Source of the DNA: Lentibacter sp.
GTDB taxonomy: Bacteria > Pseudomonadota > Alphaproteobacteria > Rhodobacterales > Rhodobacteraceae
NCBI GenBank assembly: GCA_016744435.1
Contig: JADGEJ010000009.1
Location: forward strand, 620 to 64,619
Direction of reading: 5' to 3'
Length of the DNA stretch: 64,000 nt
Positions 11,158-33,890 of this stretch are shown here, piece after piece. The notes below the pieces were generated by a model. That model saw only the letters and a list, made by a program, of their open reading frames with translations. It did not search any database and was not told the origin of the DNA. A program made the position numbers and the translations under genes. Positions within the stretch are counted from its first letter, which is position 1, and the number at the start of each line of letters is the position of its first letter.

Positions 11158-11739
11158 TCAAACGATCTGGATATTGTCTGTGATCGTGTCGAGGCCAAGG
11201 TAGATCGTGATGTCGATGGTGTTGCCGCCGCCGAAGTCGAGGAAGACGTTGGTGTCGGTCACGGTGCCGTAAGTGTTGAGCACTTGCTGGCCTGTCGTTG
11301 CCGAGCCTACGAGTGCGCTTGAGAGCTCCAAGATGTCGTGCCGGCCTTCGAAGTCGCCGATCGTGTCGTGGCCGTGGCCTGCTGCGAAAATGAAGGTGTC
11401 GATCAGGCTGCCGCCGTAGATTTCGTCGTTGCCAGTGCCTGCGTCAATCGTGTCGTGGCCTTGCGAACTATAGATCGTGTCATTGCCCGCGCCGCCGCTG
11501 ATGTAGTCACTGCCTGTCGCGCCTGAGAGGTAGTCGTTGCCATTGCCGCCGTAGAGATCATCCTGGCCTTCGGAGCCAAGCAGGCTGTCGTCGCCGTCGC
11601 CGCCATACAATGTGTCCCAGCCGGTGCGGCCAATGATGTAGTCATCGCCGTCTTCGCCGTAGACGACATCAACGCCGTTGCCCGAACTGATCCAGTCGCC
11701 GCCATCGCCACCGTAGATCAGATCAACGCCAGTGTTGCC
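11158..11739 (-). repeat. Left arm of a large inverted repeat (core); partner at 33252-33833
   Basis: The last 193 codons of this gene and of the 853-aa RTX gene differ at only 9 residues in my manual alignment. The same mirror shows up in shadow ORFs (11338-11526 vs 33465-33653). Similarity decays to about 80% nt over a further 250 bp or so. Confidence 0.85.
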
Positions 11740-12972
11740 GAACAGGCGGTCATCGCCCGCGTCGCCGTGCAGCGTGTCAGCGCCCGTGCCACCCGCCATC
11801 GTGTCCTTGCCTGTACCGCCGTGAAGCTCGTCAACCGAGCTGTCGCCAAACAGGCTGTCGTTGCCGACGCCGCCGAGCAGATTGTCGCCGCCCGTGCCGC
11901 CGCGCAACGTGTCGTGCCCCGAGCCACCATCAATTGTGTCGTGCCCCGCGTTGCCTTGCGCGCTGTCGTTGCCAGCCGAAAGCTCGATGTTGTTTGACGC
12001 GCCGTTGCCTGTGACTGTGTCGTTGCCACTGCCCGTGATCGCGTTCTCGATGCTCACGCCGTTGGCGACAGTAAAGCCGCCTGCAACGCCGGCTGCGTTT
12101 GACACAAAGCCAAGTCCGCCAGCCTCGTTGTTGAGCGTTGCTGCGCGCAAGTCGATGACTGCATTTGTCGAGCCGTTGTGGCGCAACGTGTCAACGCCGC
12201 CAGTGTCCCAGATGGACTGCCATTGGGTGCCGGAGACATTGCTGGCGGGCAGAACGTAGGTGTTGTTGCCCGAAGCGTGGGTGGTGTTGGCGCCGTAAAG
12301 GTCTTGCAGGGCCGCAATGTCGAGCGCCATTGGCCCGCTTTCATAGCCCCAGTCCCAGCCCGTGTCACCGACTGTGCCGTTGGCACCGGCATGGAAGCCG
12401 CTGTTGTAGGTCATCGTGGTGTAGATGCCTTGGTTGAAGTTGTTGTTGCCAAAGTCATCAAACGCTGCCCCGACGCCAGCCATAATGCCCGTGCCACCGC
12501 CCGTGTCATGCGGGTGCCCAAGGCCGAGGCCGTGCAGCATTTCGTGGACCATTGTGACGTAGCTGTAGCCGCCTGCTTCAAGGTCTCCGCCTGAGGTGCG
12601 GTCCCACAAAGTTGCGTTGAACACGCCGATGCTCTGGTTTGATGTTGGCAGGTAAAAATAGCCGAGCGCGTTGTCGTATTCGGCCGTTTCATCGGTGTCG
12701 AGGATCATGACATACTCGGCGCCGGACGACGAGTTTGTGATGTTGAAGTTCACGTCAATGACCGTTGCGATGGTGTCAAAAACGCTTTGGAATTGTTGAA
12801 TTTCGTAAGCGTTCCAGCCGTTGGACCTGACGCCATCCCAGCTGTTGTAGCCCGAGGGTGCAAAGTAGACATCAAATGTCGAGCCACTCATTGAGTAGTC
12901 ACTTTTGACCGAGTCTATGAGTGTCTCTGAACGCATCTGTGGCGCGGGGCTGGGTGTGGTGTCTGGCATCAA
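11158..12972 (-). CDS. Serralysin-like (metzincin) zinc metalloprotease with C-terminal RTX Ca-binding repeats; predicted T1SS substrate
   Basis: HEMLHGLGLGHPHD (HExxHxxGxxH) and a Met-turn-like IYTTMTYN. More than 20 GGxGxD nonapeptide repeats fill the C-terminal half, and there is no signal peptide. Confidence 0.85.
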   Translation of the reverse strand: MMPDTTPSPAPQMRSETLIDSVKSDYSMSGSTFDVYFAPSGYNSWDGVRSNGWNAYEIQQFQSVFDTIATVIDVNFNITNSSSGAEYVMILDTDETAEYDNALGYFYLPTSNQSIGVFNATLWDRTSGGDLEAGGYSYVTMVHEMLHGLGLGHPHDTGGGTGIMAGVGAAFDDFGNNNFNQGIYTTMTYNSGFHAGANGTVGDTGWDWGYESGPMALDIAALQDLYGANTTHASGNNTYVLPASNVSGTQWQSIWDTGGVDTLRHNGSTNAVIDLRAATLNNEAGGLGFVSNAAGVAGGFTVANGVSIENAITGSGNDTVTGNGASNNIELSAGNDSAQGNAGHDTIDGGSGHDTLRGGTGGDNLLGGVGNDSLFGDSSVDELHGGTGKDTMAGGTGADTLHGDAGDDRLFGNTGVDLIYGGDGGDWISSGNGVDVVYGEDGDDYIIGRTGWDTLYGGDGDDSLLGSEGQDDLYGGNGNDYLSGATGSDYISGGAGNDTIYSSQGHDTIDAGTGNDEIYGGSLIDTFIFAAGHGHDTIGDFEGRHDILELSSALVGSATTGQQVLNTYGTVTDTNVFLDFGGGNTIDITIYLGLDTITDNIQIV

Positions 12973-13142: not shown

Positions 13143-13220
13143 GATTTGGGGCGGGTCCGTAAGGTATCGTGAGGATGGACAAGGTTAGGTGATGCCGAAC
13201 CTTTGCAACCGGAGAACCCT

Positions 13221-14189
13221 ATGCCCAATCAATCAGCGCGACTAACGCTACCGTTTATCTTGCCAAGCCAGGCGCAGAAACATGTGACACACAACGAAGC
13301 GCTCGAACGGCTCGACGCGGTAGTGCAACTTTCGGTGGCCGGCTTTGATGCGGTCACCCCGCCAGCTCTTGCTTCGGAGGGAGACCTCTACCAACTAGGT
13401 GCAGGCGCAACAGGGGCATGGGCGGGCAACGACAGCGCGTTGGCCTACCACTCAAACGGCGGCTGGCTGTTTGTCGCCCCGCAGGAAGGCTGGCGCGCTT
13501 GGGACCTGGCAGCAAACACACTGCGTATTCTGGTAGGCGGTGCATGGCAGCCCTTCACACCACAGTTGCAAAACCTCATTGGCCTCGGCATCGGCACCAC
13601 GTCAGACGCCACAAACCGCCTTGCTGTGGCCTCGGATGCCTCACTGTTTACCCATGACGGGACAGACCACCGCATGGTTGTGAACAAGGCCGCGGCGGCA
13701 GACACTGCAGCGCTGGTGTTCCAGGACAACTACACAGGCCATGCCGAGATGGGCCTCGCGGGCGATAACGACTTTCAAGTCAAGGTCAGCGATGATGGCA
13801 TCAGCTGGTCCGAGGCTATGAGGGTGCGCAACACTGACGGCGTCGTCACAGTACCCTGCCTTATGAGCGGCAAAGTCACGATCGACAACGACGATTTCGT
13901 CAGCGTACCGACGCCAAGCGCTGGCGGAATGGTCGCGATTTCGATGGTTGATCTGGGCTACCCGCAATCGACACACAGTGGCCTTTTCTCGTATGATACA
14001 GGCGGATCTTTGTCGCTCTACACGCTGGCGAAAGGGGCGAGCCTTGAAAATGAGGGCTCCACAGCGCTTACCGGAACCAGCTCAACAGACGGGCGCAGCG
14101 CTCTTGCCGTCGCGACGGGTGCTCTGCTCATTGAAAACCGTCATGGAGGAACGAGGCATTATGCCTATACGTTCCTTAACTCTTACTAG
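13221..14189 (+). CDS. DUF2793-type, phage/GTA tail-fibre-like protein
   Basis: N-terminal signature ARLTLPFILPSQAQKHVTHNEALERLDA. The mid region (NRLAVASDASLFTHDG..HRMVVNKAAAADTAALVFQDNYTGHAEMGLAGDNDFQVKVSDDG) is typical of this family. I chose the ATG at 13221 because a GGAG lies 6 nt upstream. Confidence 0.6.
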   Translation: MPNQSARLTLPFILPSQAQKHVTHNEALERLDAVVQLSVAGFDAVTPPALASEGDLYQLGAGATGAWAGNDSALAYHSNGGWLFVAPQEGWRAWDLAANTLRILVGGAWQPFTPQLQNLIGLGIGTTSDATNRLAVASDASLFTHDGTDHRMVVNKAAAADTAALVFQDNYTGHAEMGLAGDNDFQVKVSDDGISWSEAMRVRNTDGVVTVPCLMSGKVTIDNDDFVSVPTPSAGGMVAISMVDLGYPQSTHSGLFSYDTGGSLSLYTLAKGASLENEGSTALTGTSSTDGRSALAVATGALLIENRHGGTRHYAYTFLNSY

Positions 14190-14371
14190 GATTAATGGGT
14201 CCTGACCCTAAAGCTCTTGCGAGTGTATTGACGCTTTCGGGGCGGCCACGGGTTGTCACGGCTTGGAAAGAACTGGCGGCGCTTTACTTGCGCCGCTGGT
14301 GCCAGGCTGACAAGCGTAGTAAAGGATAGTCCCGTTGTGGCGGGATTAGAGCGTAGGCAGCTGGTAAGTAG

Positions 14372-16150
14372 GTGAGTTTTGTGAAGGTATATTTGGACAA
14401 GCCTCAAAATTTTTGGGCCAATCTTTCAGTCGATTTCCAAGAACACCGTGAGGTGTTTCGCAACATGCTTGAGGCGATGATGTTGGCCGGGCACGACTTG
14501 AGTGTCTTCCAACGCCGCCCTTATATCGAACGAGGGCTTGAGGCGGGTTTTGCCGATGGTATCTACTATTCCTATCACAATGCGCAGCCCGGCGAAAACA
14601 GCTATTGCTACAAGCGCGGCCCTTTCCCGTACCTTTGGTATATGGATCCTGCGGGCTATGCGGGCTGGAGCCAGATAGCTTTGGACACCTCCCTACAGGA
14701 AGAAGCCGCGCAGTATCCTGTGGAGAAAGCCACTGCCGTTGTCCAGGAATACTGCCGCCGCATGCTGACGGAGAACCACTCTGTTTTGCCTCAGCCTGAA
14801 ACCATTCCGGAGGCCGAGATTGAAGGTCTGGAAAGCTTTGTTTTCTATTCTCTTCAAGTCAACAATGACGAAGTCATGAAGCTGACAGAAGTCGCGCAGT
14901 ACGAGAGCATTAAAGCTGCGGCGGCTGCGGCCAAGAAAATGAAACGCCACCTTGTTTTCAAACAACATCCTTTGTGCAAATCATCCGTTGTTGCACGGCT
15001 GTTGGGCGAGTTGGCGAAGTCAAAATATGTTCATGTCAGCGTTGGCTCAGTGAACAAGCTGCTCAGCAAAGCGCGCAGTGTCTTGGTTACCAATTCAACT
15101 GTCGGCTTTCAGGCGCTCGTTCTTGGCAAGCCCGTGTTCACAGTGGGTAAGAGCGAATATAGCTTCATGACCCAGCCAATTCAGACGCCAGAAGAGATTG
15201 CTGAGGTTTTCCGCGTTACTGACTTCAGGCAGCCGGAGCGTGTTTTGCGCCAAATCGGCTATTTGCTAAGTGAGTACTTTGTCGACATGCGCGACCCTCA
15301 AAGGCTGGGCGCGCGGCTGCAAGAGCATGCTGCAGTGTTTGCCCGGAAAAACAACAACACCCAAAGCCGGTTTCAAGCCGAGGAGTTGGACAGTTACAAA
15401 ATCTACCTCACGGCAGCACACCGACTGGAAAAAGAAACACATGAGCGCCTTGAGTTTTTGCTGGAAAGCTACAGCGCGCTCACCCCTCCAGAAAAGCCAG
15501 CTATTGTAGCGGCGCTTTCGAATTTTGTGTCGCACGGGCACTTTGTCGAAAAAATCCTGAGAAGCACCGATGGGGAAGTTGCCCTACGCAGCCTGAAGCT
15601 TGTCGACAAACGCAAAGACAGCCTCAAGAAAGACCAAATTTTGCGGGCGCTCTGCGACATCAAAACCAGTGCAAGCGCCAAAGTGTTCTATGACCGAAGC
15701 AGAGAGTATTACGCCGCAGGCGACGAATTCGAGGGCTTGAGGTTTGCGCGCTTGGCGGCGAGCCACCCTAAGGCCTCTACAAATGCCAGTGTGTTTTGCG
15801 CTCGCAAGTTGCTGTCAGCGAGCAACTACGACAACCCGGAGCTGCGGCTGCTAATCCAAGGCCTTGCGGGGCATTCGACAAGCAATACGTGGCTTATGAA
15901 ACTCCGGTTTGGCCTTGCGCTACACGACAACGAGCTCGAGCGCGCGGCTGAGGTTTTGAAAGTAGCGTCGCGAGACGCATGGGACAAAAGCGAAGCTGAG
16001 TTGCATCGTAAGCAACTTCAGAAACGGCTTAAGCCGCCAGCGCCCACCGCCAAAGCGCGGCCGGTTGCGAAACCCAAGCCCGCAGCCAAGCCGAAAGCGG
16101 CGGCTACGCCAAGCCCAGACGCACCGAAGAAGCGACAGAAGTCGCATTGA
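14372..16150 (+). CDS. Capsule_synth (KpsS/KpsC, GT107-like) domain protein with a helical C-terminal extension and a Lys/Pro/Ala-rich tail
   Basis: YMDPAGYAGWSQIA and HLVFKQHPL...VLVTNSTVGFQALVLGKPVFTVGKSEY match the capsule biosynthesis (LipB/KpsS) pattern. The C-terminal 39 aa are KPPAPTAKARPVAKPKPAAKPKAAATP.... The GTG start is uncertain. Confidence 0.6.
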   Translation: MSFVKVYLDKPQNFWANLSVDFQEHREVFRNMLEAMMLAGHDLSVFQRRPYIERGLEAGFADGIYYSYHNAQPGENSYCYKRGPFPYLWYMDPAGYAGWSQIALDTSLQEEAAQYPVEKATAVVQEYCRRMLTENHSVLPQPETIPEAEIEGLESFVFYSLQVNNDEVMKLTEVAQYESIKAAAAAAKKMKRHLVFKQHPLCKSSVVARLLGELAKSKYVHVSVGSVNKLLSKARSVLVTNSTVGFQALVLGKPVFTVGKSEYSFMTQPIQTPEEIAEVFRVTDFRQPERVLRQIGYLLSEYFVDMRDPQRLGARLQEHAAVFARKNNNTQSRFQAEELDSYKIYLTAAHRLEKETHERLEFLLESYSALTPPEKPAIVAALSNFVSHGHFVEKILRSTDGEVALRSLKLVDKRKDSLKKDQILRALCDIKTSASAKVFYDRSREYYAAGDEFEGLRFARLAASHPKASTNASVFCARKLLSASNYDNPELRLLIQGLAGHSTSNTWLMKLRFGLALHDNELERAAEVLKVASRDAWDKSEAELHRKQLQKRLKPPAPTAKARPVAKPKPAAKPKAAATPSPDAPKKRQKSH

Positions 16151-16211
16151 TGCGGGTTTGCCAGCCCTGATCCCCGCACGAGCTCAGGGCGGATCATGGC
16201 TCAGTTTTCAA

Positions 16212-19200
16212 CTAGGATTTCGTCGTAAACGCGCTCTTGGAGCTGCGCGCTTTCCCCCGAACACCAACATATTTCTCATGCCCGGGCTCGAACCGCTCGC
16301 CCAAGGCCCGCCCAACCAGCTCGCTTAAAGACGGGTTTGCTTTTTTGGCATGCGCCTTGAGGTCATCTTTGAACCAATAGGGTGGATAGATCACCTTGTT
16401 GGTCACGGGGCGGGCGTGAAAACGGTAGGGTTGAGTGAAGTCGTCATTGGCCATGTAGTCCAGCCAAACAGCTGCGCGTTCGCGAAAGTCAGGCGCAGGG
16501 ATCACAGGCTTCTCGCCGCGTAGATAAGCTTCGTATTCTTGGCGGCTTTCTAGCTCTACCTGCCCGATGGGGTAATCCACCGGAGCAAAATGACCGGCTG
16601 TAATACACGGGATACCCATCAGTCCCAGTTCGATCGTGGTCGTCCCATTGTAGACTAGGCCCATGTCGATCCGGTGGCGCATATCATCCATGTCAAACCA
16701 GCGGTGGCCCATGAAAATGGCATTGTCGCCCAGTGGTTCTTCCAGCAAGTCGCTGAAATATTCTGTGGGGAAGGTCGCGATCTGGTTGTTCAGCTCATGA
16801 GGGTGCGGCTTGATCAGCAGCAAGGTATTGGTGCCCTGTACTGACCGAATTGAATGATTGATCCAATCTTTCATACTGCTGTGCCCCGGCCCCCCGTCAA
16901 AAGGTACAGAGCTGTCACAGACAACCTTGCCAAAGGCGCAGGCGACTTTGCCACCTTTTGCACGCCACTGGGTGATGCGCTCATCCAACGCCTGTGCCTC
17001 GGCAGGGCGATCATCGCTGCCCTCGGTAGACCGACGCACCTTCGTGATCGGCGCAAAGCGCTTGATGATCTGTGGCAACTGTTTTTGATGGCTGTCATAG
17101 TAGCGCTCAAAGTTTTCGGGCAAGGGAAAACTGCCTGAGCGCGCATGCGGACTGCGTGTCATGTTGCGCATAACCAACCGCTGCGAGATGTTGGTAGAGA
17201 AGTTGGTGAAATAGTTCTGATAGCCATTGGCTGTGTGCAAATAGAAGAACTTTTCCGGATCACCGTATTCTTCGCAATAAAAGCGGAACAATGAATCAGG
17301 TAGGCGACAGTTGTAGAGAGAAACCAAACCCACCTTGAGGTTCTCGGACTTATGCAGCGCCAGAGTGTAATCCAACACCCGCGCCATCGAATGCGTCCAA
17401 TCAGAGAGCGTGCCCAGATATCTCTGCAACTCGGGGCAACCGTGGTTGAGCGAGTAGCGGCGGCGGTTGATGGCGCCGTCTTCCCAGACAGAATGCGACA
17501 GGTCAATAGGGCCCCATGTCAGGCGCCCACGGTCTAACTCCGGAACGTAGTTCTTGACTTGCGGCATGGCCTTTTCTGCCCGTGCCACAAGCGAAACTAC
17601 AGGGCTGATCGCGCCATTGATGACATCGATTTTTGGGTTGCCTGTTTGCTCGCGCGGCAACAACCCTTCGACCATTGGCAGCACGGCCCAGCCGCGACGC
17701 TTGAACTCCAACAGGGCCATCAGCGGATAGCGGCGCAACTGGTCGATATTGCGCGGCGCTACAAGGATAATCCCCTTTGGGTTTTTCGGCTGCGGCACGG
17801 ATTTGTAGATATTCGCCGTTTCGATCAGGAATTTCAGCTCGCCGTAGCGTTTGATCAGGCTGTGGTTGGAAAATGCGTTGATCCTGCTGGGGTTGGCGAG
17901 GCTTTGCCCGTGCACATCTTCCAGCAGGCGCAGCGCGTGGCCAAACTTGCCTTGGCGTTGCAGAATATTGACATAGTGCAACAGCCCCTGACGGCGGAGC
18001 AGGTTTTTGGGCAAGACATCAAAGAAGTCATTGGCCTTTTTGTAATTGTGGGTCAGCGAGGCCCAGCGGAAGAAATGCTGCATGTCACGGTTGATGCGAG
18101 GAGGGTTGCTCGACGCAACTTCCATGATCCGAGCCGCCGCTTTCATGTTCTTGGTGGTATGGGCCAAGGCAGCTGGAGCAGGCCACAGTGCATGTGCCAG
18201 TTCTGGTTGGGCACTGAGCGCCTCAAGATATGCCGTGATCCGCTGTGTCAGATCACTGCGACCAAGCCGATGTGCCAGAGGCAAATAGGCACACAGATCA
18301 ATCACGGTTTGCTCTGCAAGCTTGAGGGTTTTCACGCCAGCAGGGTCGAACAAGGCTTCAAAGCGCTCTTCGTAAGCGCGTAGCTGCGTGGCGGCGCGCT
18401 CGTACGACTGAGTGTAGTCGGGGATATGCCGGATGCCGGTGCGCAACATGCTGGCAATGATGTTGATCTGGGCGAGCGGCTTCGTGGCCGCGTTGAGTTC
18501 CGTGTCACAGATATCAAGATACTGATCGCGTTGGCGCGATTGCAGTGCTTTTTCCTTAAAGGAAGTTTGCAGTTTCGCTGGGGCGGCGGCATCTTCGCTG
18601 AGAATGTCTTGGGGCTGCGCCTCGTTCGGCGCGGTTGTCTTTACCTTGCCATTTACGGCGTCAAGCAAGGTACCAGAGTTGACGCGTTCGCGTTCGCGCT
18701 CTCGATCCTGAGGGTTGGACGTTTCTTGTGTGTCGTCTGTCCAGTCCATCTGTTCGCGGGCGATCAGATCCAGCACCCGCCAGGACTGCTGGAGGATCAG
18801 CATACGGCGTTTTTGCAAATCTTCGGGGGCATCATAGGGGTTCTCGATCGTTTCGATCAGCAGCTCACTAGCACCGCGATAATCTCCCTGCATACCGCGG
18901 CAGATTGTGATCAAATGGACAAGAAAAACGCTCTCGTGGAACCGCTTGTTTGCCTCGATGGCCGCTTCGAGCAACGTCTTGCGGCCCTCTTCGCTGATCA
19001 GCAATTGAGAAATCAGACGCCCCGCTTGAAACTGTCCAGCGCGCTGGGTGCGCTCCAGTTCGGCCATGTTTTTGAGCAGCCCGACATAATTTTTCGACCG
19101 GATGTGTGGAACCATAAGGCTGCGCAACCGCTCAGTTCTGTAGAGCGCGGCCTGCTCTTCATTGCCCAAAGCTTCGTAAGCTAGTGTCCGAGCGCGGGCC

Positions 19201-19376
19201 ACTTGCTGTGTCTTGGGCTTATTGAGCTCTGCAACTTTCAGAACCTTCAAAGCCAGCGACGGCATCTTGGCGCGGATGAGCAAATTGCTCCATTTGAGAG
19301 GCCTGTGGTGGCCCAGCCTACGGACCGCCTTGCGCGCCAAGGAGCGAGTTTTTATCTGTTGAAATGTCTTATTCAT
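16212..19376 (-). CDS. Giant (1054 aa) protein: N-terminal TPR-like helical region of about 450 aa plus a C-terminal Capsule_synth/GT-B-like domain
   Basis: The C-terminal pattern (FGKVVCDSSVPFDGGPGHSS ... LLLIKPHPHE ... GLVYNGTTTIELGLMGIPCITAG) resembles KpsC/KpsS-type transferases. It starts 24 nt after the pseI stop on the same strand, so it is probably co-transcribed. Local GC is lower (about 45-53% in the stretches I counted). Confidence 0.55.
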   Translation of the reverse strand: MNKTFQQIKTRSLARKAVRRLGHHRPLKWSNLLIRAKMPSLALKVLKVAELNKPKTQQVARARTLAYEALGNEEQAALYRTERLRSLMVPHIRSKNYVGLLKNMAELERTQRAGQFQAGRLISQLLISEEGRKTLLEAAIEANKRFHESVFLVHLITICRGMQGDYRGASELLIETIENPYDAPEDLQKRRMLILQQSWRVLDLIAREQMDWTDDTQETSNPQDRERERERVNSGTLLDAVNGKVKTTAPNEAQPQDILSEDAAAPAKLQTSFKEKALQSRQRDQYLDICDTELNAATKPLAQINIIASMLRTGIRHIPDYTQSYERAATQLRAYEERFEALFDPAGVKTLKLAEQTVIDLCAYLPLAHRLGRSDLTQRITAYLEALSAQPELAHALWPAPAALAHTTKNMKAAARIMEVASSNPPRINRDMQHFFRWASLTHNYKKANDFFDVLPKNLLRRQGLLHYVNILQRQGKFGHALRLLEDVHGQSLANPSRINAFSNHSLIKRYGELKFLIETANIYKSVPQPKNPKGIILVAPRNIDQLRRYPLMALLEFKRRGWAVLPMVEGLLPREQTGNPKIDVINGAISPVVSLVARAEKAMPQVKNYVPELDRGRLTWGPIDLSHSVWEDGAINRRRYSLNHGCPELQRYLGTLSDWTHSMARVLDYTLALHKSENLKVGLVSLYNCRLPDSLFRFYCEEYGDPEKFFYLHTANGYQNYFTNFSTNISQRLVMRNMTRSPHARSGSFPLPENFERYYDSHQKQLPQIIKRFAPITKVRRSTEGSDDRPAEAQALDERITQWRAKGGKVACAFGKVVCDSSVPFDGGPGHSSMKDWINHSIRSVQGTNTLLLIKPHPHELNNQIATFPTEYFSDLLEEPLGDNAIFMGHRWFDMDDMRHRIDMGLVYNGTTTIELGLMGIPCITAGHFAPVDYPIGQVELESRQEYEAYLRGEKPVIPAPDFRERAAVWLDYMANDDFTQPYRFHARPVTNKVIYPPYWFKDDLKAHAKKANPSLSELVGRALGERFEPGHEKYVGVRGKARSSKSAFTTKS

Positions 19377-19400
19377 AATGTCGAGTTTTCAGCGTTTAGA

Positions 19401-20480: not shown

Positions 20481-20485
20481 CGTCT

Positions 20486-24286: not shown

Positions 24287-24340
24287 AGTCAAGCCTCGGT
24301 TCTGCGAGAGGCCGACGGGCATGCCGCGCCGGCCATTTCG

Positions 24341-26505
<2,165 letters not shown>

Positions 26506-26512
26506 TTAACTA

Positions 26513-26527
26513 TTAATTCTCGGTTAA
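26513..26527. promoter_or_regulatory. Perfect CtrA-type box TTAA-N7-TTAA immediately upstream of pseB
   Basis: The sequence ttaattctcggttaa lies 20-34 nt upstream of the pseB ATG, inside an AT-rich 157-nt gap. Confidence 0.35.
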
Positions 26528-26586
26528 TTCCTACAGCGCAAAGTATCAATAGAGGTATACCCTACTTGTGACTCTGAACTGTGTTG

Positions 26587-26600
26587 GTTTTTAAAAAAAA
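26587..26600. repeat. Homopolymer tract T5A9
   Basis: The sequence tttttaaaaaaaaa lies in the methyltransferase-pseB intergenic region. A tract like this is unusual in a roughly 60% GC background. Confidence 0.9.
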
Positions 26601-26650
26601 AGTACTCGGTATCGTATGTTGAAATTGACTTACCGCTTTCAAACGGGTCG

Positions 26651-27421
26651 TCAAATTGGCTTGCGGCCCGCATAGTTTACTCGGACATTCTCGCGCCACC
26701 CGCCAAATGCGTCGGGCTTCACGGCGTTTCGGCCCTGACCGCGCACATCGCGACGGCGTTCCGTGTAGTCAAACTCTGATGTCAGGCACTCAAGTCCCTC
26801 AAAAAGTGATTTTAAGCCCTCGGCAGTATAGCGCCAATAGTCGATGGGGCAAGGATGGTAACGCCATGCAAACAAGGTGCTGTGCACTGTCACACCGCCG
26901 GGTTTCAAGATCCGCTGGATCTCAGAGGCTGCCAACCAAGGCTTGTTGATGTGCTCGAAGACATCAAAGCTGAAGATGAAGTCATAGCTGTTGTCGGCGA
27001 TATGCGGGCAGTTGGTTATGTCTCCCACCGCCACTTCAATGTCGGCCCCGGGCGCGCCTTTGAGGTCAAGCGCCTGATAACGGAACTCTTTGAACTCAGC
27101 GTTGCGCGGGTTGTGGCGGCCACCAATCTCGAGCATCAGGCCGTCGTTGACCTTACCGCGCGTTAAGGCGTCGCGGGTCATGTCGCGGACTCGGTCCCAG
27201 CGGGGGGTACCAAGCTTCCAAGCATTCCCGTCAGCTTCAAACTGGCGCAGCTTGAGTGTCGCGCTTCCGTCAGCCGAAAAGGGCCCCTTGCCGCTTTGAC
27301 CGGCCTGCACCGCTTGAGTGATGCGATCATCAACAAGTGAGGAAAGCGACCGCGAATTTACAAGGCGCGACGGATCACTGAATGCCTTCATGGCGGCGGA
27401 GATACGTTTTTTCAGTCCCAT
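26651..27421 (-). CDS. Class I SAM-dependent methyltransferase
   Basis: Motif I-like LEIGG, an acidic loop, and DFIFSFDVFEHI...LKPGGV, which fits the Methyltransf_11-like pattern. Confidence 0.7.
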   Translation of the reverse strand: MGLKKRISAAMKAFSDPSRLVNSRSLSSLVDDRITQAVQAGQSGKGPFSADGSATLKLRQFEADGNAWKLGTPRWDRVRDMTRDALTRGKVNDGLMLEIGGRHNPRNAEFKEFRYQALDLKGAPGADIEVAVGDITNCPHIADNSYDFIFSFDVFEHINKPWLAASEIQRILKPGGVTVHSTLFAWRYHPCPIDYWRYTAEGLKSLFEGLECLTSEFDYTERRRDVRGQGRNAVKPDAFGGWRENVRVNYAGRKPI

Positions 27422-27484
27422 GATGACCCTTTAGATCGAGTTTTTTTCCGGTGCTCCGCTTGTTTCGCGCAGACACCTGACAGT

Positions 27485-28231
27485 TTATCCCCGCCTTATG
27501 CGGTTGAAACTGTGAGAAAGCAAACAGGCAAGCGCTTTTTTACGCGAGAAGCCTAAGTGCGCGCGGTAAACGCGCCACGTACCAAGCGATGCGACCAGTT
27601 TGTTGTTGGACAGAGAATTGCTGACAACGTGATAATCCAGCAAAATCTCGTTAAGACCATGGGCCTTGTGGTGCGTCTTGAGCAGGTCAAGCCAGAGCGC
27701 ATAGTCTTGCCGTCTGTGAAACGCAGGCATCGGCGTTTTTCCGCAGATTGCGCTGTCGTATATGGCCGTTGAGCAGCAGATCACGTTGCCCCGCAACAGC
27801 GCCTCGTAAGTTGTGCTTTGCGGCACTTGCACAGGGCGCGATCCGTTTTTACTGACGCGGTTAAAGCCGGTGTAACTAAGTGCTGCGCCCGTGCGTTCCA
27901 TAAGTGCGATCTGATGGTCTAGCTTGTTAGGCCACCATGCATCATCGGCATCCAGAAAAGCAATGTAGCGCCCGCGTGCTGCTGCAATGGCAAGGTTGCG
28001 GGCCGCTGCAACGCCCTGATTCGCGGGCAGCTCATCAAAGAAGATATTCGCCGCAACGTCTGCAAATCTTTGGGCGATCTTGCTTGTCGCATCGCTTGAG
28101 CCGTCGTCAACAATACGCAGTTCCCAGTCGGTGAAGCTCTGCGCCTGCACCGAGGCAACAGCCTGCTCGAGTGTCGCAGCCGCATTATAGGCGGGCAGAA
28201 CAACAGTGACACGGGGAGTGCTTGGCAACAT
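27485..28231 (-). CDS. Family 2 glycosyltransferase
   Basis: VTVVLPAYNAAATLEQAVASVQAQSFTDWELRIVDDGSSD and the DxD region AFLDADDAWWPNKL. Confidence 0.85.
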   Translation of the reverse strand: MLPSTPRVTVVLPAYNAAATLEQAVASVQAQSFTDWELRIVDDGSSDATSKIAQRFADVAANIFFDELPANQGVAAARNLAIAAARGRYIAFLDADDAWWPNKLDHQIALMERTGAALSYTGFNRVSKNGSRPVQVPQSTTYEALLRGNVICCSTAIYDSAICGKTPMPAFHRRQDYALWLDLLKTHHKAHGLNEILLDYHVVSNSLSNNKLVASLGTWRVYRAHLGFSRKKALACLLSHSFNRIRRG

Positions 28232-28248
28232 CTGTTCCTTCGGGTGCT

Positions 28249-29064
28249 CTATTTGAGCAACATTGACTGGCCGTAACGATACAGCATGAGAAAACCAAAG
28301 AACATTGGAACTAGCGCTAGAAAAATCACAAACGAGACCATCGGATATTGCGGGTCATAAGTTGCGTAAAAGCCTTCACGTGACATCCCGACAACATGAA
28401 CGATCGGATTGAACCAAAGCAGATCCTGGATCGCGCGGGGCAGGTCTTCAAAGGTGTAAAACACGCCTGACACCAGCATCAAAGGGCGCGTTGCCACGCC
28501 CCAAAGTGACTTCCAGATCGGAAATGAAAAGAAGGCATATGCGTTGAACACTCCAAAGCCGAAGCCCAGAAAGGCGCTGAGTGCAAATGCCAGAAAGACA
28601 GGCCCAAAATCTACGCTCTCCTGAATGCCTTGCTGCAGGTAAATGCCTGTGAGGATGATCGCGCAGACCATAATCTGCGTCAGAATCGCCAGCAACGCAC
28701 GCGCCACGACAACATCAACCAGCGTTACGCGCGGGTAGCCTAACAGCGCCAAATTAAAGGCAATTGAATTGCCAACATTTGCGGAAACTTCCTGAAACAT
28801 CCTCAAAGGCAGCAGGCCTGTCGCGTAAAACATTAGAAAACTCGTGCCAAGCGAAGGTGCGCGCAGCAAAAGCGAAAACCCAAGCGCCAGCACCAGGATT
28901 GTGCCGACAGGCTGCAACACCGCCCAGACATAGCCACCTGGTGAGCGGCCATAAGTTGTCGACATCTCGCGCAAAATAAGTGCCGCAACAGTGCGGGCCA
29001 TGGGGAACCGCAGATCAGGTGTTTGCGGGCGGGCGGGCCGGTCTGGTTCTTTCGCTACGTCCAT
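28249..29064 (-). CDS. kpsM: Capsule/polysaccharide ABC-2 exporter permease
   Basis: 271 aa with about 6 TM in an ABC-2 pattern. It is divergent from kpsE-kpsT. Confidence 0.8.
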   Translation of the reverse strand: MDVAKEPDRPARPQTPDLRFPMARTVAALILREMSTTYGRSPGGYVWAVLQPVGTILVLALGFSLLLRAPSLGTSFLMFYATGLLPLRMFQEVSANVGNSIAFNLALLGYPRVTLVDVVVARALLAILTQIMVCAIILTGIYLQQGIQESVDFGPVFLAFALSAFLGFGFGVFNAYAFFSFPIWKSLWGVATRPLMLVSGVFYTFEDLPRAIQDLLWFNPIVHVVGMSREGFYATYDPQYPMVSFVIFLALVPMFFGFLMLYRYGQSMLLK

Positions 29065-29136
29065 CTTTACTAGAATTCCTGCCAGAGATATGTGATCATC
29101 ACTTAGTTATCATATACATGGGCGTGGACCAAACAC

Positions 29137-30471
29137 TTGGCCGATAATCAAAAAACACCCGAGCAGTCTCAAACACCTTCTGCAGTCGAGAGCAAGCCAG
29201 TACCTGCTCCAGAGGCACCCAAGGCACCGGAGCCAAAGCCCGTTCTTGCGGTGCCTGCCTCCGCTGTGAAGCCCGCAACTGCAGCCAAGCCGGCCCCCGC
29301 CAAGCCTGTGCCCGCAAAGCCAGCCCCTGCCAAGATTGATATCGCTCCGACAGTGGCGCCCGCCCGCCCAAAGCGCAGGCATGTCATGTTGCTTGTCAGC
29401 TTCTTGGTGTTGGTGTTGCTTCCGGCAGCCATTTTCGCGGGATACCTCTGGATAAAGGCGGTTGATCAGTACGCCTCTAACGTGGGCTTTACTGTGCGCC
29501 GCGAAGAAGCGCCAACCGCTGTTGATCTGATCGGCGGGCTAAGCAACCTGTCCTCCTCAAGCTCGTCAGACAGTGACGTGCTTTACGAGTTTATCCAGTC
29601 TCAGGAGCTGATTCAGCAAATTGACGACAAGCTTGATCTGCGCAAGATTTATTCCGAGCATCACTCCGGAGATCCGCTGTTCACCCTTAAGGAAGGCAGT
29701 AACATCGAGGAGCTTTTGCAATACTGGAAGCGCATGGTTCAGATTTCCTATGCACCGGGCACCGGCCTTATCCAGATCAAGGCACTCGCTTTTACGCCGC
29801 AAGATGCGCAAAACATCTCTACCGAGATATTTGAGAAAAGCTTGGTGATGATCAACGAGCTGTCGGCAGTCGCGCGCAACGACACGATGCGCTATGCCAC
29901 TGAAGAGCTTGATCTCGCGATCATACAGCTCAAAGAAGCTCGTCAAGCGCTGACGCGGTTTCGCTCAGTGAACCAGATCGTCAACCCGACAGCCGACATT
30001 CAAGTTCAGATGGGGTTGCTCACGACACTTCAACAGCAACTTGGCGAAGAGCTGATCACCTTTGATTTGCTCAAGGAGAACATCAAAGACAGCGATCCGC
30101 GACTTGTGCAATCTGAGCTCAAGATCAAGGCGATCAGAGCCCGGATCACAGAAGAGCGGCTGAAGCTTGGCACCGGTGGTTCAACGATCAGCGGCGAGAG
30201 CTATGCAACGCTTTTTGCTGATTTCGAGCGCCTGTCGATAGACCGTGAGTTTGCCGAGCAGAAATATACCGGAGCCTTGTCAAACCTTGACAGCGCCCGC
30301 GCCGATGCGCGCCGCCAGAACCGTTATCTCGCTGCGTTTATTCGCCCGACATTGCCTGAAAGTGCCGAGTATCCACGCCGCTTGCTTGTGCTGGCGGTGG
30401 CCACGTTCTTCCTGTTGGCGGCTTGGAGCATTCTCGCCCTGATCTATTACTCGCTGCGTGACCGCCGCTAA
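29137..30471 (+). CDS. kpsE: Capsule export inner-membrane (PCP-3, KpsE-like) protein with a Pro/Ala/Lys-rich N-terminal extension
   Basis: TM helix, then YASNVGFTVRRE, a long coiled-coil region, and a C-terminal TM (the KpsE/RkpR pattern). The TTG start at 29137 is uncertain; in-frame GTG codons and the ATG at about 29383 are alternatives. Confidence 0.7.
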   Translation: MADNQKTPEQSQTPSAVESKPVPAPEAPKAPEPKPVLAVPASAVKPATAAKPAPAKPVPAKPAPAKIDIAPTVAPARPKRRHVMLLVSFLVLVLLPAAIFAGYLWIKAVDQYASNVGFTVRREEAPTAVDLIGGLSNLSSSSSSDSDVLYEFIQSQELIQQIDDKLDLRKIYSEHHSGDPLFTLKEGSNIEELLQYWKRMVQISYAPGTGLIQIKALAFTPQDAQNISTEIFEKSLVMINELSAVARNDTMRYATEELDLAIIQLKEARQALTRFRSVNQIVNPTADIQVQMGLLTTLQQQLGEELITFDLLKENIKDSDPRLVQSELKIKAIRARITEERLKLGTGGSTISGESYATLFADFERLSIDREFAEQKYTGALSNLDSARADARRQNRYLAAFIRPTLPESAEYPRRLLVLAVATFFLLAAWSILALIYYSLRDRR

Positions 30472-30480
30472 AGGTTTCTG

Positions 30481-31161
30481 ATGATCAAGCTGGAAAATGT
30501 CACCAAGAGCTTTGCAACCCCGCGCGGCCCGAAATATGTCGCGCGCAACATCAATGCGGTGTTTCCAAAGGGGCAGGCCGTTGCCTTGATGGGCCGCAAT
30601 GGCGCGGGCAAAAGCACCATGCTCCAGATGATGTCAGGGCGCACACCGCCTGACCAAGGCAGCATTATCGCGGAAGGCTCGGTTTCGTTTCCCGTGGGTT
30701 TTGCCGGTACGTTTCACCGCGACCTGACAGGCGCGCAGAACACTCGGTTTATCGCGCGCATTTACGGCGTTGACACCGACGAGCTGATGGAGTTCGTCGC
30801 CGACTTTGCCGAACTGGGCGGGCATTTTCACATGCCAATTCGCAGCTATTCCTCCGGAATGCGCTCGCGGCTGGCCTTCGGCATTTCGATGGGCATCCAC
30901 TTTGATACTTACCTCGTTGATGAGGTGACATCCGTTGGCGACCAAAGCTTTCGCAACAAAAGCGCGGCTGTCTTTCGGGCACGGCTCGAGCATTCGAGCG
31001 CCATTGTTGTCAGCCACTCTCTCGCCGAAATGCGCAACCTTTGCACCTCGGGCGCAGTGCTTGAGAACGGCGAACTCACGTTCTTTGACAAGGTAAACGA
31101 CGCCATCGCGCAGCACGTCGAGAACATGCAGCAACCGATTAAAGCCATCCTAAAACCTTAA
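30481..31161 (+). CDS. kpsT: Capsule export ABC transporter ATP-binding protein
   Basis: Walker A GRNGAGKST, signature YSSGMRSRLAF, Walker B YLVDEV. Confidence 0.88.
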   Translation: MIKLENVTKSFATPRGPKYVARNINAVFPKGQAVALMGRNGAGKSTMLQMMSGRTPPDQGSIIAEGSVSFPVGFAGTFHRDLTGAQNTRFIARIYGVDTDELMEFVADFAELGGHFHMPIRSYSSGMRSRLAFGISMGIHFDTYLVDEVTSVGDQSFRNKSAAVFRARLEHSSAIVVSHSLAEMRNLCTSGAVLENGELTFFDKVNDAIAQHVENMQQPIKAILKP

Positions 31162-31271
31162 ATTTCTCTGAAAATTCTGAACATAGGCCATGTTTTAGAC
31201 ATTGGCCCGATCTGCATCTTGCCCACCGCCTTTGAGACCAAGGCACCAAGTTTACGCTTGGAGCAAGATAC

Positions 31272-33833
31272 ATGTGGTTTGGGCAATCCACCCACCTAAC
31301 CGGATTACCAGAGGCCTTTAACGCCGTCACGCCGCAGATCGCGGTGACGACACTTGGTGGCGATATCTCAGTCTCTTTGTACTCGGGTTGGGAATATGGC
31401 CAAAGCAGCTTCTCTTTCTCTGTTGGGGACGGGCTTCTGTTTGACGGATTTGCTGATCGCACAGCCTCGTTCAGTGCTCTGGTGGTTGCTGGACAGCAGT
31501 ATAGCGTGCTTGACCACTACCTTGACCACCTGACCGACGAAGGCTCAGGCGCGAGCACCGCAACAGGCATCTATGGCTCGCAAACCGGGCAATACCGCGA
31601 CTTGGTCAACCTGCTGCATGTCGAGCAAGACGGGGTGTCTTACTTTGTTGCCTCGGCGGCCGCGGGCGAGGGGTTGAGCGTGTTCATCCGCGACGCAAGC
31701 GGAAGCCTCTCTGCGGTTCATTCGGTCAATGACAACAACAGCCGCTACCTTGACGGCGTCTCGACGCTTTGCGCCTATGAAAGCGCTGATGGAACGACAT
31801 TCATCTTCGCTGGTAGCCAGATCGAAAATGGGCTGACAGTTCTGGAGATGCGGTCCAACGGCACACTCTCTTTCGTTGAAGCGCAGGGCGTGAAAGAGAC
31901 TATCGCAGTCGCCACGCCGACAGCCATGTGTACGGTCCAGATTGGCGGACAGGGCATGCTCGTTGTGGCTGATTCTGGCACAAGCGCTCTGACGGTTTTT
32001 CTCATTGCTGATGACGGAACGCTCACACTTGCCGACACCTTCTGGGACAGTCGCGATACGCGCATCGGCGGCGTCAACGCGATCGAGCTAGTTGAGACGC
32101 CAGAAGGTGTTTTCATAATCGCGGGTGGAGCCGACGACGGGCTGAGCATTTTTCAGCTTCTGCCTTCGGGCACGCTCATGCACCTTGACACGATTGCCGA
32201 CAGCCTTGTCACTGGCCTCTCCAATGTGAACAACATCGAGGCAGCTGTTGTCGGTGGCACGATACAGGTGTTCGTCACGTCCGAGCAGGAAGCAGGTATC
32301 ACGCTTGTGAGCGTTGACATTCCGGCGGGCTACACCACTCGCACGGGCACTGCAGGCAACGACCAGCTGGCAGGCAACAACAACGCCAGTGTCTTTTGGG
32401 ATGGGGCAGGCCGCGACACGCTCACAGGCGGCGCGGGCAGTGAAGTTTTCGTGCTTGATGCCGACGGAGACCGCGACGTGATTGCCAACTTCACGCTTGG
32501 CTCGGATGTACTGGACTTGTCCGCGTGGCAAGGGCTTTACACCACCTTGCAACTGGACTTCACCAGCACATCCGACGGCGCCATTCTCGTGTTTCAGAGC
32601 GAAGAGCTCGTGCTGCAAACCACCACAGGACAAAGCCTTACATATGAAGACTTGCTTGAGACAAACATCACCGGGCTAACCCAGATCGCGGCACCTCTCG
32701 AGGTGCTTGGACCAAGCAACGGCAACGATATCCTGCATGGCACGAGTCAGGCTGAGGCGCTGCTGGGATTGGGCGGAAGTGACATCATCCGCGGTGAGGG
32801 CTCTGGCGACACACTGAATGGTGGCACGGGCAATGACACGCTTTTTGGCGGCTCAGGCAACGACACTTTAGAGGGCGACAGAGACAATGACAGCCTGCTC
32901 GGAGAGGCGGGCCACGACAGCCTGTTTGGCGGCAGTGGCAATGACACGCTTATCGGCGGTGATGGCAACGATGTGATGCTCGGCGAAGACAACAACGACA
33001 GCCTGTCAGGCGGCGCAGGTAACGACAGCGCCCAGGGCGGCGCAGGCCACGACACCATGCAGGGTGGCATCGGCAACGACACGCTGCGCGGCGGCACAGG
33101 CGCTGATGATCTCTTCGGCGACGACGGCAATGACAGCCTTTATGGCGACAGCTCGATTGACGAGTTGCACGGCGGCGACGGGCTCGACACGCTCACGGGC
33201 GGCATCGGAGCTGACACGCTCTACGGCGACGCGGGCGATGACCGATTGCTGGGCAACACTGGCGTTGATCTGATCTACGGTGGCGATGGCGGCGACTGGA
33301 TCAGTTCGGGCAACGGCGTTGACGTAGTTTACGGTGAGGGCGGTGATGATTATATCATCGGCCGCACGGGCTGGGACACATTGTACGGCGGCGACGGCAA
33401 CGACAGCCTGCTTGGCTCCGAAGGCCAGGATGATCTCTACGGCGGCAATGGCAACGACTACCTCTCAGGCGCGACAGGCAGTGACTACATCAGCGGCGGC
33501 GCGGGCAATGACACGATCTACAGCTCGCAAGGCCACGACACGATTGACGCAGGCACTGGCAACGACGCCATTTTTGGCGGCAGTCTGATCGACACCTTTA
33601 TCTTTGAAGCAGGTCACGGCGCCGACACGATCGGCGACTTCGAAGGCCGCCACGACATCTTGGAGCTCTCAAGCGCACTCGTAGGCTCGGCCACAACAGG
33701 CCAGCAAGTGCTCAACACTTACGGCACTGTGACCAACACCAACGTCTTCCTCGATTTTGGCGGCGGCAACACCATCGACATCACGATCTACCTTGGCCTT
33801 GGCACGATCACAGACAATATTAGCATTGTGTAG
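31272..33833 (+). CDS. RTX Ca-binding protein with an N-terminal beta-propeller-like repeat domain; predicted T1SS substrate
   Basis: The N-terminal half has repeats of about 55 aa (G[LI][ST]V[FL]....DG[ST]L[ST]). The C-terminal 380 aa or so carry GGxGxD nonapeptides. There is no signal peptide, and a GGAG RBS precedes the ATG. Confidence 0.8.
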   Translation: MWFGQSTHLTGLPEAFNAVTPQIAVTTLGGDISVSLYSGWEYGQSSFSFSVGDGLLFDGFADRTASFSALVVAGQQYSVLDHYLDHLTDEGSGASTATGIYGSQTGQYRDLVNLLHVEQDGVSYFVASAAAGEGLSVFIRDASGSLSAVHSVNDNNSRYLDGVSTLCAYESADGTTFIFAGSQIENGLTVLEMRSNGTLSFVEAQGVKETIAVATPTAMCTVQIGGQGMLVVADSGTSALTVFLIADDGTLTLADTFWDSRDTRIGGVNAIELVETPEGVFIIAGGADDGLSIFQLLPSGTLMHLDTIADSLVTGLSNVNNIEAAVVGGTIQVFVTSEQEAGITLVSVDIPAGYTTRTGTAGNDQLAGNNNASVFWDGAGRDTLTGGAGSEVFVLDADGDRDVIANFTLGSDVLDLSAWQGLYTTLQLDFTSTSDGAILVFQSEELVLQTTTGQSLTYEDLLETNITGLTQIAAPLEVLGPSNGNDILHGTSQAEALLGLGGSDIIRGEGSGDTLNGGTGNDTLFGGSGNDTLEGDRDNDSLLGEAGHDSLFGGSGNDTLIGGDGNDVMLGEDNNDSLSGGAGNDSAQGGAGHDTMQGGIGNDTLRGGTGADDLFGDDGNDSLYGDSSIDELHGGDGLDTLTGGIGADTLYGDAGDDRLLGNTGVDLIYGGDGGDWISSGNGVDVVYGEGGDDYIIGRTGWDTLYGGDGNDSLLGSEGQDDLYGGNGNDYLSGATGSDYISGGAGNDTIYSSQGHDTIDAGTGNDAIFGGSLIDTFIFEAGHGADTIGDFEGRHDILELSSALVGSATTGQQVLNTYGTVTNTNVFLDFGGGNTIDITIYLGLGTITDNISIV
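33252..33833 (+). repeat. Right arm of the large inverted repeat (core); partner at 11158-11739
   Basis: See the left arm. 184 of 193 encoded residues are identical, and nt similarity appears to be above 90% by eye. Confidence 0.85.
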
Positions 33834-33890
33834 GGGGCAAAGCGCAGAATGGTCCTTGCCTTTCGCACGCTCCGCGCAAATTGTGGGCCT

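Follow-up and report, generated by a model that had tools for sequence, protein, structure and literature searches.

In Salmonella enterica, the inverted paralogues tufA and tufB evolve in concert through gene conversion, and now and then the interval between them is inverted (Abdulkarim & Hughes 1996; Hughes 2000; Brandis et al. 2019, PMC6735719), with up to 50% of the recombination events giving inversions and a fitness effect that comes from the swapped promoter and terminator context (PMC6735719). A different kind of sequence sharing is known for the FrpA/FrpC-like RTX (repeats in toxin) proteins of Neisseria meningitidis, substrates of type I secretion systems (T1SS) with variable N-terminal domains and common RTX and C-terminal parts (PMC5472700). 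Here we describe a locus of Lentibacter sp. (Rhodobacteraceae) found in a window of 64,000 nt, by which we mean the whole stretch of DNA analysed (assembly GCA_016744435.1, contig JADGEJ010000009.1, positions 620 to 64,619 of the forward strand), where the 3′ ends of two otherwise unrelated RTX genes, one for a serralysin-type M10 metalloprotease and the other for a beta-propeller protein, form a long inverted repeat around a block of capsule and pseudaminic-acid genes. The finding combines two known phenomena, shared RTX tails and inverted converting paralogues, and is an ordinary product of gene conversion.

As in the tufA/tufB case, we find long similar inverted repeats in coding sequences together with sequence signs that non-allelic conversion has kept them similar, and a crossover between them would leave both open reading frames (ORFs) intact. 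The tuf genes, however, are whole-gene paralogues about 99% identical for which inversion has been shown experimentally, whereas here the genes have in common only 810 nt at their 3′ ends, with 92.6% identity in a core and 77.5% in its flank, the interval holds accessory glycan genes over 21.5 kb and an inverted state has not been seen. With the FrpA/FrpC-like proteins the locus shares the pairing, within one genome, of different N-termini with a common repeat and secretion-signal part. Still, the Frp proteins make up one family with about 350 variable N-terminal residues, whereas the two proteins of the window have different folds (metzincin and beta-propeller), and the sharing of their tails is demonstrably recent relative to the same gene pair in relatives.

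Inverted repeats are also a mark of site-specific surface switches such as the polysaccharide (PS) promoters of Bacteroides fragilis with Mpi, fimS of E. coli or hin of Salmonella, in which repeats of tens of bp and a dedicated recombinase allow a small promoter segment to be flipped relative to fixed genes. The DNA between the repeats described here, likewise beside surface-structure genes, could take two orientations, but each repeat comprises 806 nt of coding sequence, the gene block would move together with its promoters and no recombinase appears among the scanned ORFs. Finally, enzymes exported by T1SS are encoded beside exopolysaccharide loci in several bacteria, as exemplified by the AlgE epimerases of Azotobacter, PlyA/PlyB of Rhizobium and ExsH of Sinorhizobium. 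The kpsE-kpsT-RTX(-M10) arrangement of several Rhodobacteraceae resembles them in placing RTX-type secreted proteins next to polysaccharide export genes, although the beta-propeller domain of the window has no catalytic assignment and its link with the capsule is putative.

An inverted repeat made of two gene tails

A repeat finder detected one long inverted pair in the window (positions 11171-11976 against 33015-33820; 806 nt, 89% complementary, 21,038 nt between both members), whose arms are the ends of the minus-strand M10 gene and of the plus-strand beta-propeller RTX gene (Table 1). When anchored at their stop codons, both ORFs align without gaps along the shared tails. A preliminary description of this DNA, made by a model from the sequence alone, had counted nine differing residues in the last 193 codons, followed by about 250 bp of roughly 80% identity, around a 21.5-kb block, and had regarded a core identity well below about 85% as contrary to its reading. 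The full alignment reproduces these figures closely: the last 193 codons, hereafter the core, differ at exactly 9 amino acids (95.3% identity) and at 43 of 579 nt (92.6% identity), the 77 codons preceding it (231 nt, hereafter the 5′ flank) are 77.5% identical, and the interval between cores, 11740-33251, comprises 21,512 nt. Upstream of these approximately 270 shared codons identity drops to 34-43%, that is, to no similarity, and downstream it is lost no more than about 10 nt away from the stop codons. Only two copies of this tail module occur within the window.

The N-terminal domains of the two proteins are unrelated, as already suggested. In the minus-strand protein, the translation contains the metzincin motif HEMLHGLGLGH (which fits HEXXHXXGXXH), and Pfam detects a Peptidase_M10_C domain (PF08548, 6e-10) and nine HemolysinCabind stretches (PF00353); its NCBIfam Zn_serralysin score, 148 bits, falls under the 500-bit subfamily cut-off, so the protein is a divergent serralysin-type member. 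The best homologs of its N-terminal part are Rhodobacteraceae M10 proteins, 51-62% identical. The plus-strand protein carries 15 HemolysinCabind stretches, and its family homologs are 29-39% identical. The AlphaFold model of its N-terminal domain (pLDDT 79, from an alignment of 20 family members) shows all-beta four-stranded blades, and every top Foldseek match in the PDB is a 7-bladed propeller, in agreement with the beta-propeller label given to this gene in the preliminary description; these PDB matches allow no catalytic assignment. As for the shared module itself, it consists of the final RTX nonapeptide repeats and a non-repeat C-terminus of about 90 aa, and is 35-47% identical to the corresponding ends of other RTX proteins from Rhodobacteraceae; its last 90 aa align over their full length with those of other family members, at 35-46%. 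Position, HemolysinCabind matches and this family homology all support the earlier view of the module as the last RTX repeats plus a putative T1SS secretion signal.

The explanation we favour, with a probability of about 0.7, is a replacement of the 3′ tail between two genes for T1SS substrates, followed by patchy conversion and purifying selection, of which the inverted repeat would be a by-product. In related Rhodobacteraceae the M10 and beta-propeller RTX genes stand in tandem, 3′ of kpsE-kpsT, with C-termini about 42% identical. In the lineage of the window, the last ~270 codons of one gene, comprising the final RTX repeats and the C-terminal secretion-signal domain, would have taken the place of the other gene's. 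The kps/RTX unit, too, is now inverted in this lineage relative to the M10 gene, and the pseudaminic-acid genes lie between them. Short tracts of non-allelic conversion would later have re-homogenised patches of the last 193 codons, whereas strong purifying selection would have kept the protein nearly identical, presumably via recognition by one shared T1SS. Occasional flips of the 21.5 kb by RecA-dependent recombination in the arms could follow from such a history as a passive possibility, not as a capsule switch.

Signs of conversion and selection in the arms

Comparison of the cores gives a dN (nonsynonymous divergence) of 0.028 and a dS (synonymous divergence) of 0.27, with a dN/dS of 0.10. 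The differences are unevenly spread, with perfect runs of 121, 71, 43, 41 and 41 nt. A run of at least 121 nt was seldom obtained in permutations keeping the number of differences per codon position (P = 0.0006), and the sum of the two longest runs was reached in none of 20,000 permutations; within the 121-nt run there are no differences where about nine would be expected. A similar mosaic is seen in the proportion of synonymous differences (pS) calculated in 30-codon windows, which is 0.50 at codons -180 to -151, falls to 0.05 and 0.10 across codons -150 to -91, rises to 0.42 at -90 to -61, and is 0.13 at -60 to -31 and 0.30 at -30 to -1. The 5′ flank has a pS of 0.39-0.49 and stands apart from the core mainly by amino-acid-changing differences (proportion of nonsynonymous differences, pN, 0.158 vs 0.027; Fisher P = 2e-8).

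Such values point to strong purifying selection on the core and to arms that are not young at silent sites, because dS is 0.27 and the unconverted patches, with a pS of 0.42-0.50, resemble the 5′ flank. The simplest reading of the profile would be one old founding event over the whole ~810 nt (pS ~0.45), followed by several short conversion tracts in the last 193 codons, of which the 121- and 71-nt runs are candidate recent examples and also the best candidate substrates for RecA pairing. The original statement that the module was kept homogeneous by gene conversion stands in part: the mosaic runs and the patchy pS agree with it, but purifying selection is equally responsible for the 95% protein identity.

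Selection on its own could be invoked instead, with a single swap or duplication of the 3′ end and subsequent divergence under the constraint of the T1SS signal, without any later conversion. The low dN/dS of a core with diverged synonymous sites (locally, pS up to 0.50), as well as the fact that core and 5′ flank differ mainly at nonsynonymous sites, are what this history would leave behind. It is at odds, however, with a 121-nt run devoid of the nine or so expected differences and accompanied by another of 71 nt, and with a pS that alternates about ten-fold between adjacent 30-codon windows, so we hold it to be unlikely, though deserving of consideration.

The same gene pair in relatives

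A search with the full M10 protein against 5.8 billion proteins revealed no close orthologue, the best full-length match being 51% identical. The 193-aa module finds its best match at 47% identity among the 118 non-self M10-family homologs listed and at 45% among 21 homologs of the beta-propeller family, figures to be compared with the 95% of the other arm in its own genome. Searches directed at the module were less informative. A contig scan with the 193-aa sequence, dominated by generic RTX peptide patterns, yielded, as the best among the matches listed, RTX proteins 36-54% identical from many phyla and no relative of the locus, and the best 150 matches of a search among representative proteins were giant multi-repeat RTX proteins (37-47% identity). 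Metagenome contig scans with the last 85 aa and with a 74-nt wobble-masked pattern of the non-repeat tail found no relative either, and a contig look-up with the full beta-propeller protein listed no encoding contig. A protein search with the 193-aa module returned only proteins of at most 338 aa and missed the window's own two, so further copies may exist.

The order of the genes, on the other hand, recurs in Rhodobacteraceae: kpsM on the minus strand, followed on the plus strand by kpsE-like, kpsT, beta-propeller RTX and, usually, M10 RTX genes (Table 1). Lentibacter algarum (L086) has the tandem RTX-M10 pair without the flank formed by GST, FMN_bind_2, GST and cytochrome bc1 genes; in three other contigs (L088-L090) the 3′ end of the RTX gene lies immediately 5′ of the M10 gene; and another one (L091) contains kpsM, kpsE, kpsT and the RTX gene. 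In three lineages, L088-L090 and L092/L093 among them, the layout adjoins genes for GST, FMN_bind_2, GST, a phosphonate-binding protein and cytochrome bc1. In the tandem pairs of L086 and L092 the last 120 aa of both proteins are 41-43% identical, versus 94% in the window. An arm similarity at the level of the paralog background, which the preliminary description had listed, jointly with a single orientation, as contrary to its reading, is therefore not what is found: the near-identity of the tails is derived and specific to this lineage, with a background of about 42% for this gene pair. Independently of the repeat, the presence of T1SS substrates after capsule export genes in several Rhodobacteraceae suggests secreted enzymes associated with the capsule, and the conserved kpsE-kpsT-RTX-M10 synteny may reflect a link of capsule export to such enzymes.

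Origin of the shared tail and rearrangement history

Which gene gave its tail to the other can be approached through the families of both proteins. An unusual stretch of the module, GNTGVD..GGDGxDW(I/M)S.GNG.D...GDD(Y/F)(I/L)IGRTGWDTL, recurs in the closest homolog of the beta-propeller family (P0148), whereas the GRTGWDTL motif occurs in none of the 118 other M10 homologs. At residue 335, precisely where the module begins, the identity of the M10 protein to its own family goes down from 56-73% to 43-49%, whereas that of the beta-propeller protein to P0148 continues over the module boundary at 44-51%. Moreover, the M10 proteins most closely related to this one lack about 140 aa of its length. 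Because of the P0148 motif, the identity drop at residue 335 and the shorter relatives, the beta-propeller gene is most likely the donor and the M10 gene the recipient, a direction that we propose tentatively.

Comparison with the relatives also informs about past rearrangements. With respect to the GST-cytochrome bc1 flank, the M10 gene keeps the position and orientation seen in L092/L093 (L088 is consistent for M10 and flank), while the kpsM/E/T-RTX unit is inverted relative to L092/L093 and now lies 21.5 kb from the M10 gene with the Pse genes between. The kps-RTX block was thus inverted at least once historically, although this inversion cannot, as judged from gene order, be attributed to the present arms, since neither state of a flip between them yields the tandem layout. 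A single inversion deriving the present layout from the tandem one was also considered and discarded; the gene order fits, but the relocation of GST-FMN_bind_2 and the orientations of the biosynthetic genes do not. Profiles of composition and GC skew show no step at the arms, and gave no usable signal on orientation or foreign origin.

Several points weigh against the tail replacement with later conversion as we propose it. The patchy pS could partly result from uneven constraint on synonymous sites, and the searches turned up no close relative with this module in which a tree of orthologues versus paralogues could bear out the presumed concerted evolution. The direction of transfer draws on a single homolog (P0148) and on identity profiles. 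That the similarity breaks off exactly at the stop codons, with no flanking homology beyond, is unusual for simple homologous conversion and speaks against it as the founding event; the sequence hints rather at an illegitimate or duplication-type event. Positions 33252-33465 (214 nt of the right arm) are supported by the NCBI contig alone. And among the 30 ORFs scanned (8.8-53 kb) none matches HlyB/HlyD/TolC-type T1SS components (ABC transporter, membrane fusion protein and outer-membrane factor), which are usually encoded next to serralysin-type genes, so that the argument of a shared transporter is indirect.

Should the tail replacement be correct, the locus would be a clean natural case of modular evolution of T1SS substrates, with a complete secretion tail moved to a neighbouring unrelated gene and afterwards held in step by selection and patchy conversion, which would help to understand how cargo proteins and T1SS are matched.

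Consequences of a possible flip of the enclosed segment

The preliminary description had gone further and seen in the locus an invertible capsule cassette without a dedicated invertase. Its geometry is right: because they are inverted, in frame and gapless, a crossover at any point along the arms would invert 21.5 kb without disrupting either ORF. The cassette does not follow from it. The segment takes in both N-terminal domains with their upstream regions as well as every interior gene, all of which would move together, and because the capsule genes and both 5′ regions move as one, there is no ON/OFF logic for the capsule. A flip would exchange no more than 9 to about 37 residues of the tails, along with what lies 3′ of each gene (terminator and GST on one side, manC on the other). 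The alternative junction appeared in no contig, and the orientation of the window is the only one seen, in the window itself and in a scaffold of biosample SAMN14087007 (L082), with the assembly of SAMN14087005 broken at the repeat; no chimeric arm was seen in the ENA scaffolds, and the scanned ORFs include no match to recombinase families.

The 3′ contexts differ. A GC-rich, terminator-like hairpin followed by a T-rich tail lies 3′ of the M10 stop codon, and folding detects no equivalent hairpin 3′ of the right arm (z = 0.07); scans for consensus promoters and terminators gave no excess over shuffles and missed the M10 hairpin, seen later by folding. On the right side, manC is probably co-transcribed with the beta-propeller RTX gene, because only 15 nt separate its start from the RTX stop. 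A weak regulatory effect of a flip on manC is accordingly conceivable, with a low probability.

Recurrent RecA-dependent flipping of the 11.7-33.3 kb segment as a selected switch of the capsule or the surface would nonetheless draw on several facts. The arms are inverted and in frame and match perfectly over as many as 121 nt, at the tuf genes conversion between inverted repeats goes mechanistically hand in hand with inversion, a flip would move manC from the kpsE-kpsT-RTX transcript to the M10 transcript and the terminator hairpin to behind the kps-RTX unit, and the orientation of this unit relative to the cytochrome bc1 flank, opposite to that of L092/L093, indicates at least one past inversion. 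We nevertheless find a selected switch very improbable. The capsule/Pse genes, N-terminal domains and upstream regions keep their mutual arrangement in either state, a single orientation is present in the window and L082, and the breaks in the assembly are accounted for by a k of 55 set against runs of 71 and 121 nt. In addition, a divergence of 7.4% between arms should depress homologous recombination through the demands of RecA and mismatch repair, so that recombination between them should be infrequent; the arms enclose only part of a glycan island of about 30.7 kb; and a single flip between them cannot give the tandem layout of the relatives.

A variant of this idea, a slow and invertase-free RecA-dependent switch in which a flip changes which transcript (the kpsE-kpsT-RTX operon or M10) reads into manC and possibly into the second nonulosonic-acid cluster, appears to us more improbable still. 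Were it true, the only terminator-like hairpin would come to lie after the kps-RTX unit, the supply of GDP-mannose or nonulosonic acid, and hence the surface glycans, would vary between subpopulations in a heritable and reversible way, and the orientation of the kps-RTX unit opposite to that of the relatives (versus the cytochrome bc1 flank) would be a trace of flips. Under the tail replacement that we favour, no new kind of phase variation is revealed.

Reliability of the assembly

The window belongs to a 101,833-bp contig of a Rhodobacteraceae metagenome-assembled genome (MAG), and the same strain is found in the ENA re-assemblies BORC21-1_SAMN14087005 and SAMN14087007. The biosamples come from a study on marine bone-degrading biofilms whose MAGs are metaSPAdes co-assemblies with k up to 99 (Borchert et al. 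2021, PMC7883544). In the ENA assembly of SAMN14087005 the locus is split into three scaffolds, broken at the repeat. One of the outer scaffolds ends inside the left arm, at a distance of 121 codons from the stop codon, and another starts at the equivalent point of the right arm, whereas the middle scaffold has exactly 21,512 bp and matches 11740-33251. The breaks coincide with the two longest identical runs. This assembly used K = 55, as deduced from a 55-nt overlap at a scaffold gap, and the scaffolds break because the identical runs exceed k = 55, which is not evidence of two orientations. An apparent 155-nt indel between scaffold L081 (reverse complement, 6154-6253) and the window (~6722-6776) turned out to be a 100-N scaffold gap plus the duplicated 55-nt overlap.

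A mis-assembly of strain variants in the metagenome, which would have created the inverted duplication or the orientation of its interior, has to be considered for a MAG of short-read metaSPAdes co-assembly origin (PMC7883544), the more so as the independent one-sample assembly splits exactly at the repeat and part of the right arm is covered by one contig. All ENA scaffolds, however, match the window with 0-1 mismatches, and each outer scaffold of SAMN14087005 joins its own arm variant to its unique flank (GST side or manC side). In the second sample, the 1,784-bp scaffold L082 of SAMN14087007 covers the TPR (tetratricopeptide repeat) gene, GST, the entire left arm and 23 nt of M10-specific sequence with one mismatch, and has left-arm variants throughout and no right-arm variants, which independently confirms the left junction in the orientation of the window. 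The 43 differences of the core, moreover, are mostly synonymous and in frame, as would be the case for two real genes. With three independent scaffolds and one from a second sample in agreement with the window, we rejected an artefact, the least probable of all these explanations. A caution for metagenomes can be drawn: a repeat of this kind breaks short-read assemblies at the identical runs, and the orientation of the capsule block in short-read MAGs is deduced and only as reliable as the resolution of the 121-nt identical run.

The enclosed glycan block and its surroundings

The content of the segment (Table 1) bears out the description of a capsule and pseudaminic-acid block, through matches to Pse equivalogs and Kps families. 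PseB, PseC, PseF, PseG and PseI provide a predicted pathway for pseudaminic acid biosynthesis, in which the PseH acetyltransferase was not identified within the set; an epimerase and an ATP-grasp protein occur in the cluster instead. Predicted KpsM, KpsT and KpsE components correspond to an export system dependent on an ABC transporter (kps, group 2/3-like), and no Poly_export/KpsD match was obtained among the scanned ORFs for a KpsD-type outer-membrane export protein. For the KpsC/KpsS linker transferases, one KpsS/C-like protein with a Capsule_synth domain was identified. The 1054-aa ORF of the block, with no Pfam or NCBIfam match, may be a novel polymerase or transferase. The DUF2793 protein has a counterpart at the edge of the kps locus of Lentibacter algarum (L086 1501-2646), 47% identical.

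Table 1. Position of the repeat arms, genes and other features of the Lentibacter sp. window (coordinates of the window unless a contig of a relative is named)
Feature	Coordinates	Strand	Remarks
Left arm, core	11161-11739	-	Last 193 codons of M10 gene; 92.6% nt and 95.3% aa identity to 33252-33830; dN 0.028, dS 0.27
Right arm, core	33252-33830	+	Last 193 codons of beta-propeller RTX gene; same comparison
Left arm, older 5′ part	11740-11970	-	Codons -270 to -194; 77.5% nt identity to 33021-33251; pS 0.43, pN 0.16
Right arm, older 5′ part	33021-33251	+	Codons -270 to -194
Longest identical run, 121 nt	33400-33520	+	Partner 11471-11591
Second identical run, 71 nt	33252-33322	+	Partner 11669-11739
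Serralysin-type M10 metalloprotease/RTX gene	11158-12972	-	604 aa; residues 1-334 M10-specific, 335-604 shared module
Beta-propeller RTX gene	31272-33833	+	853 aa; propeller at about residues 110-350, then RTX repeats; 584-853 shared module
Terminator-like hairpin, GC-rich, then T-rich tail	11115-11131	-	3′ of M10 stop; fold -24.3 kcal/mol, z = -3.67
manC (GDP-mannose pyrophosphorylase/mannose-6-phosphate isomerase)	33849-35312	+	Pfam
Interior glycan block	13203-31161	mixed	Pfam, NCBIfam
DUF2793 protein	13203-14189	+	Pfam
Capsule_synth-domain (KpsS/C-like) protein	14372-16150		Pfam/NCBIfam
1054-aa ORF	16212-19376	-	No Pfam or NCBIfam match
PseI	19401-20480		NCBIfam equivalog above cut-off
Epimerase and ATP-grasp protein	between PseI and PseG		Pfam
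PseG	22533-23582		NCBIfam equivalog above cut-off
PseF	23579-24322		NCBIfam equivalog above cut-off
PseC	24341-25495		NCBIfam equivalog above cut-off
PseB	25492-26493		NCBIfam equivalog above cut-off
Methyltransferase and GT2	between PseB and KpsM		Pfam
KpsM	28249-29064		ABC2_membrane (Pfam)
KpsE-family protein	29137-30471		BexC/CtrB/KpsE family, 7.7e-63; NCBIfam 213 bits vs cut-off of 437
KpsT	30481-31161		ABC_tran (Pfam)
GST gene (GST200), conserved left flank	10469-11071	-	96% identical to relative GCA_947497495.1
Variable glycan/RTX island, ~30.7 kb	11072-41766		Separates GST200 from FMN_bind_2/GST215
kps-RTX(-M10) layout, window	29137-33833
kps-RTX(-M10) layout, L086	3769-11767
kps-RTX(-M10) layout, L091	2673-8096
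kps-RTX(-M10) layout, L092	691-5542
kps-RTX(-M10) layout, L093	3705-11386

A conserved neighbourhood is interrupted by the island, which contains the two RTX genes and the Pse/kps block as well as a second nonulosonic-acid cluster. In three relatives (L083, L088, L092) GST200 directly adjoins the GST215/FMN_bind_2 pair (41767-43018 in the window), and the GST/FMN_bind_2 flank proteins are 69-96% identical in two relatives checked. Relatives with the contiguous GST-FMN_bind_2-GST trio have a different glycan cluster on its other side, and from gene order the locus looks like a rearranging hotspot of surface-polysaccharide islands. The second nonulosonic-acid cluster (sialic/legionaminic-like; 35321-41763) lies outside the segment bounded by the repeats, and comprises genes for a DUF6716 glycosyltransferase, a NeuA-HAD fusion, a CST-I-like sialyltransferase, a GlcNAc 2-epimerase, NeuB and a GT2 protein.

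Other genes of the window lie beyond the island. On its left side, the minus-strand gene for a 559-aa TPR protein (8790-10469) stands between GST200 and the gene for the phosphonate-binding protein, and its absence at that position in L083 and L092 points to a small lineage-specific insertion. On its right side, a plus-strand gene (45484-48636) encodes a 1050-aa protein with N6-methylase, Eco57I/MmeI-type methylase and Type ISP C-terminal specificity domains and with no nuclease or helicase part detected in it, which may be a truncated or stand-alone Type ISP-like methyltransferase. It is followed at 48879-54102 by a haem-uptake cluster (TonB-dependent receptor, HemS/ChuX and periplasmic binding protein), plausible for an organism of bone-surface biofilms.

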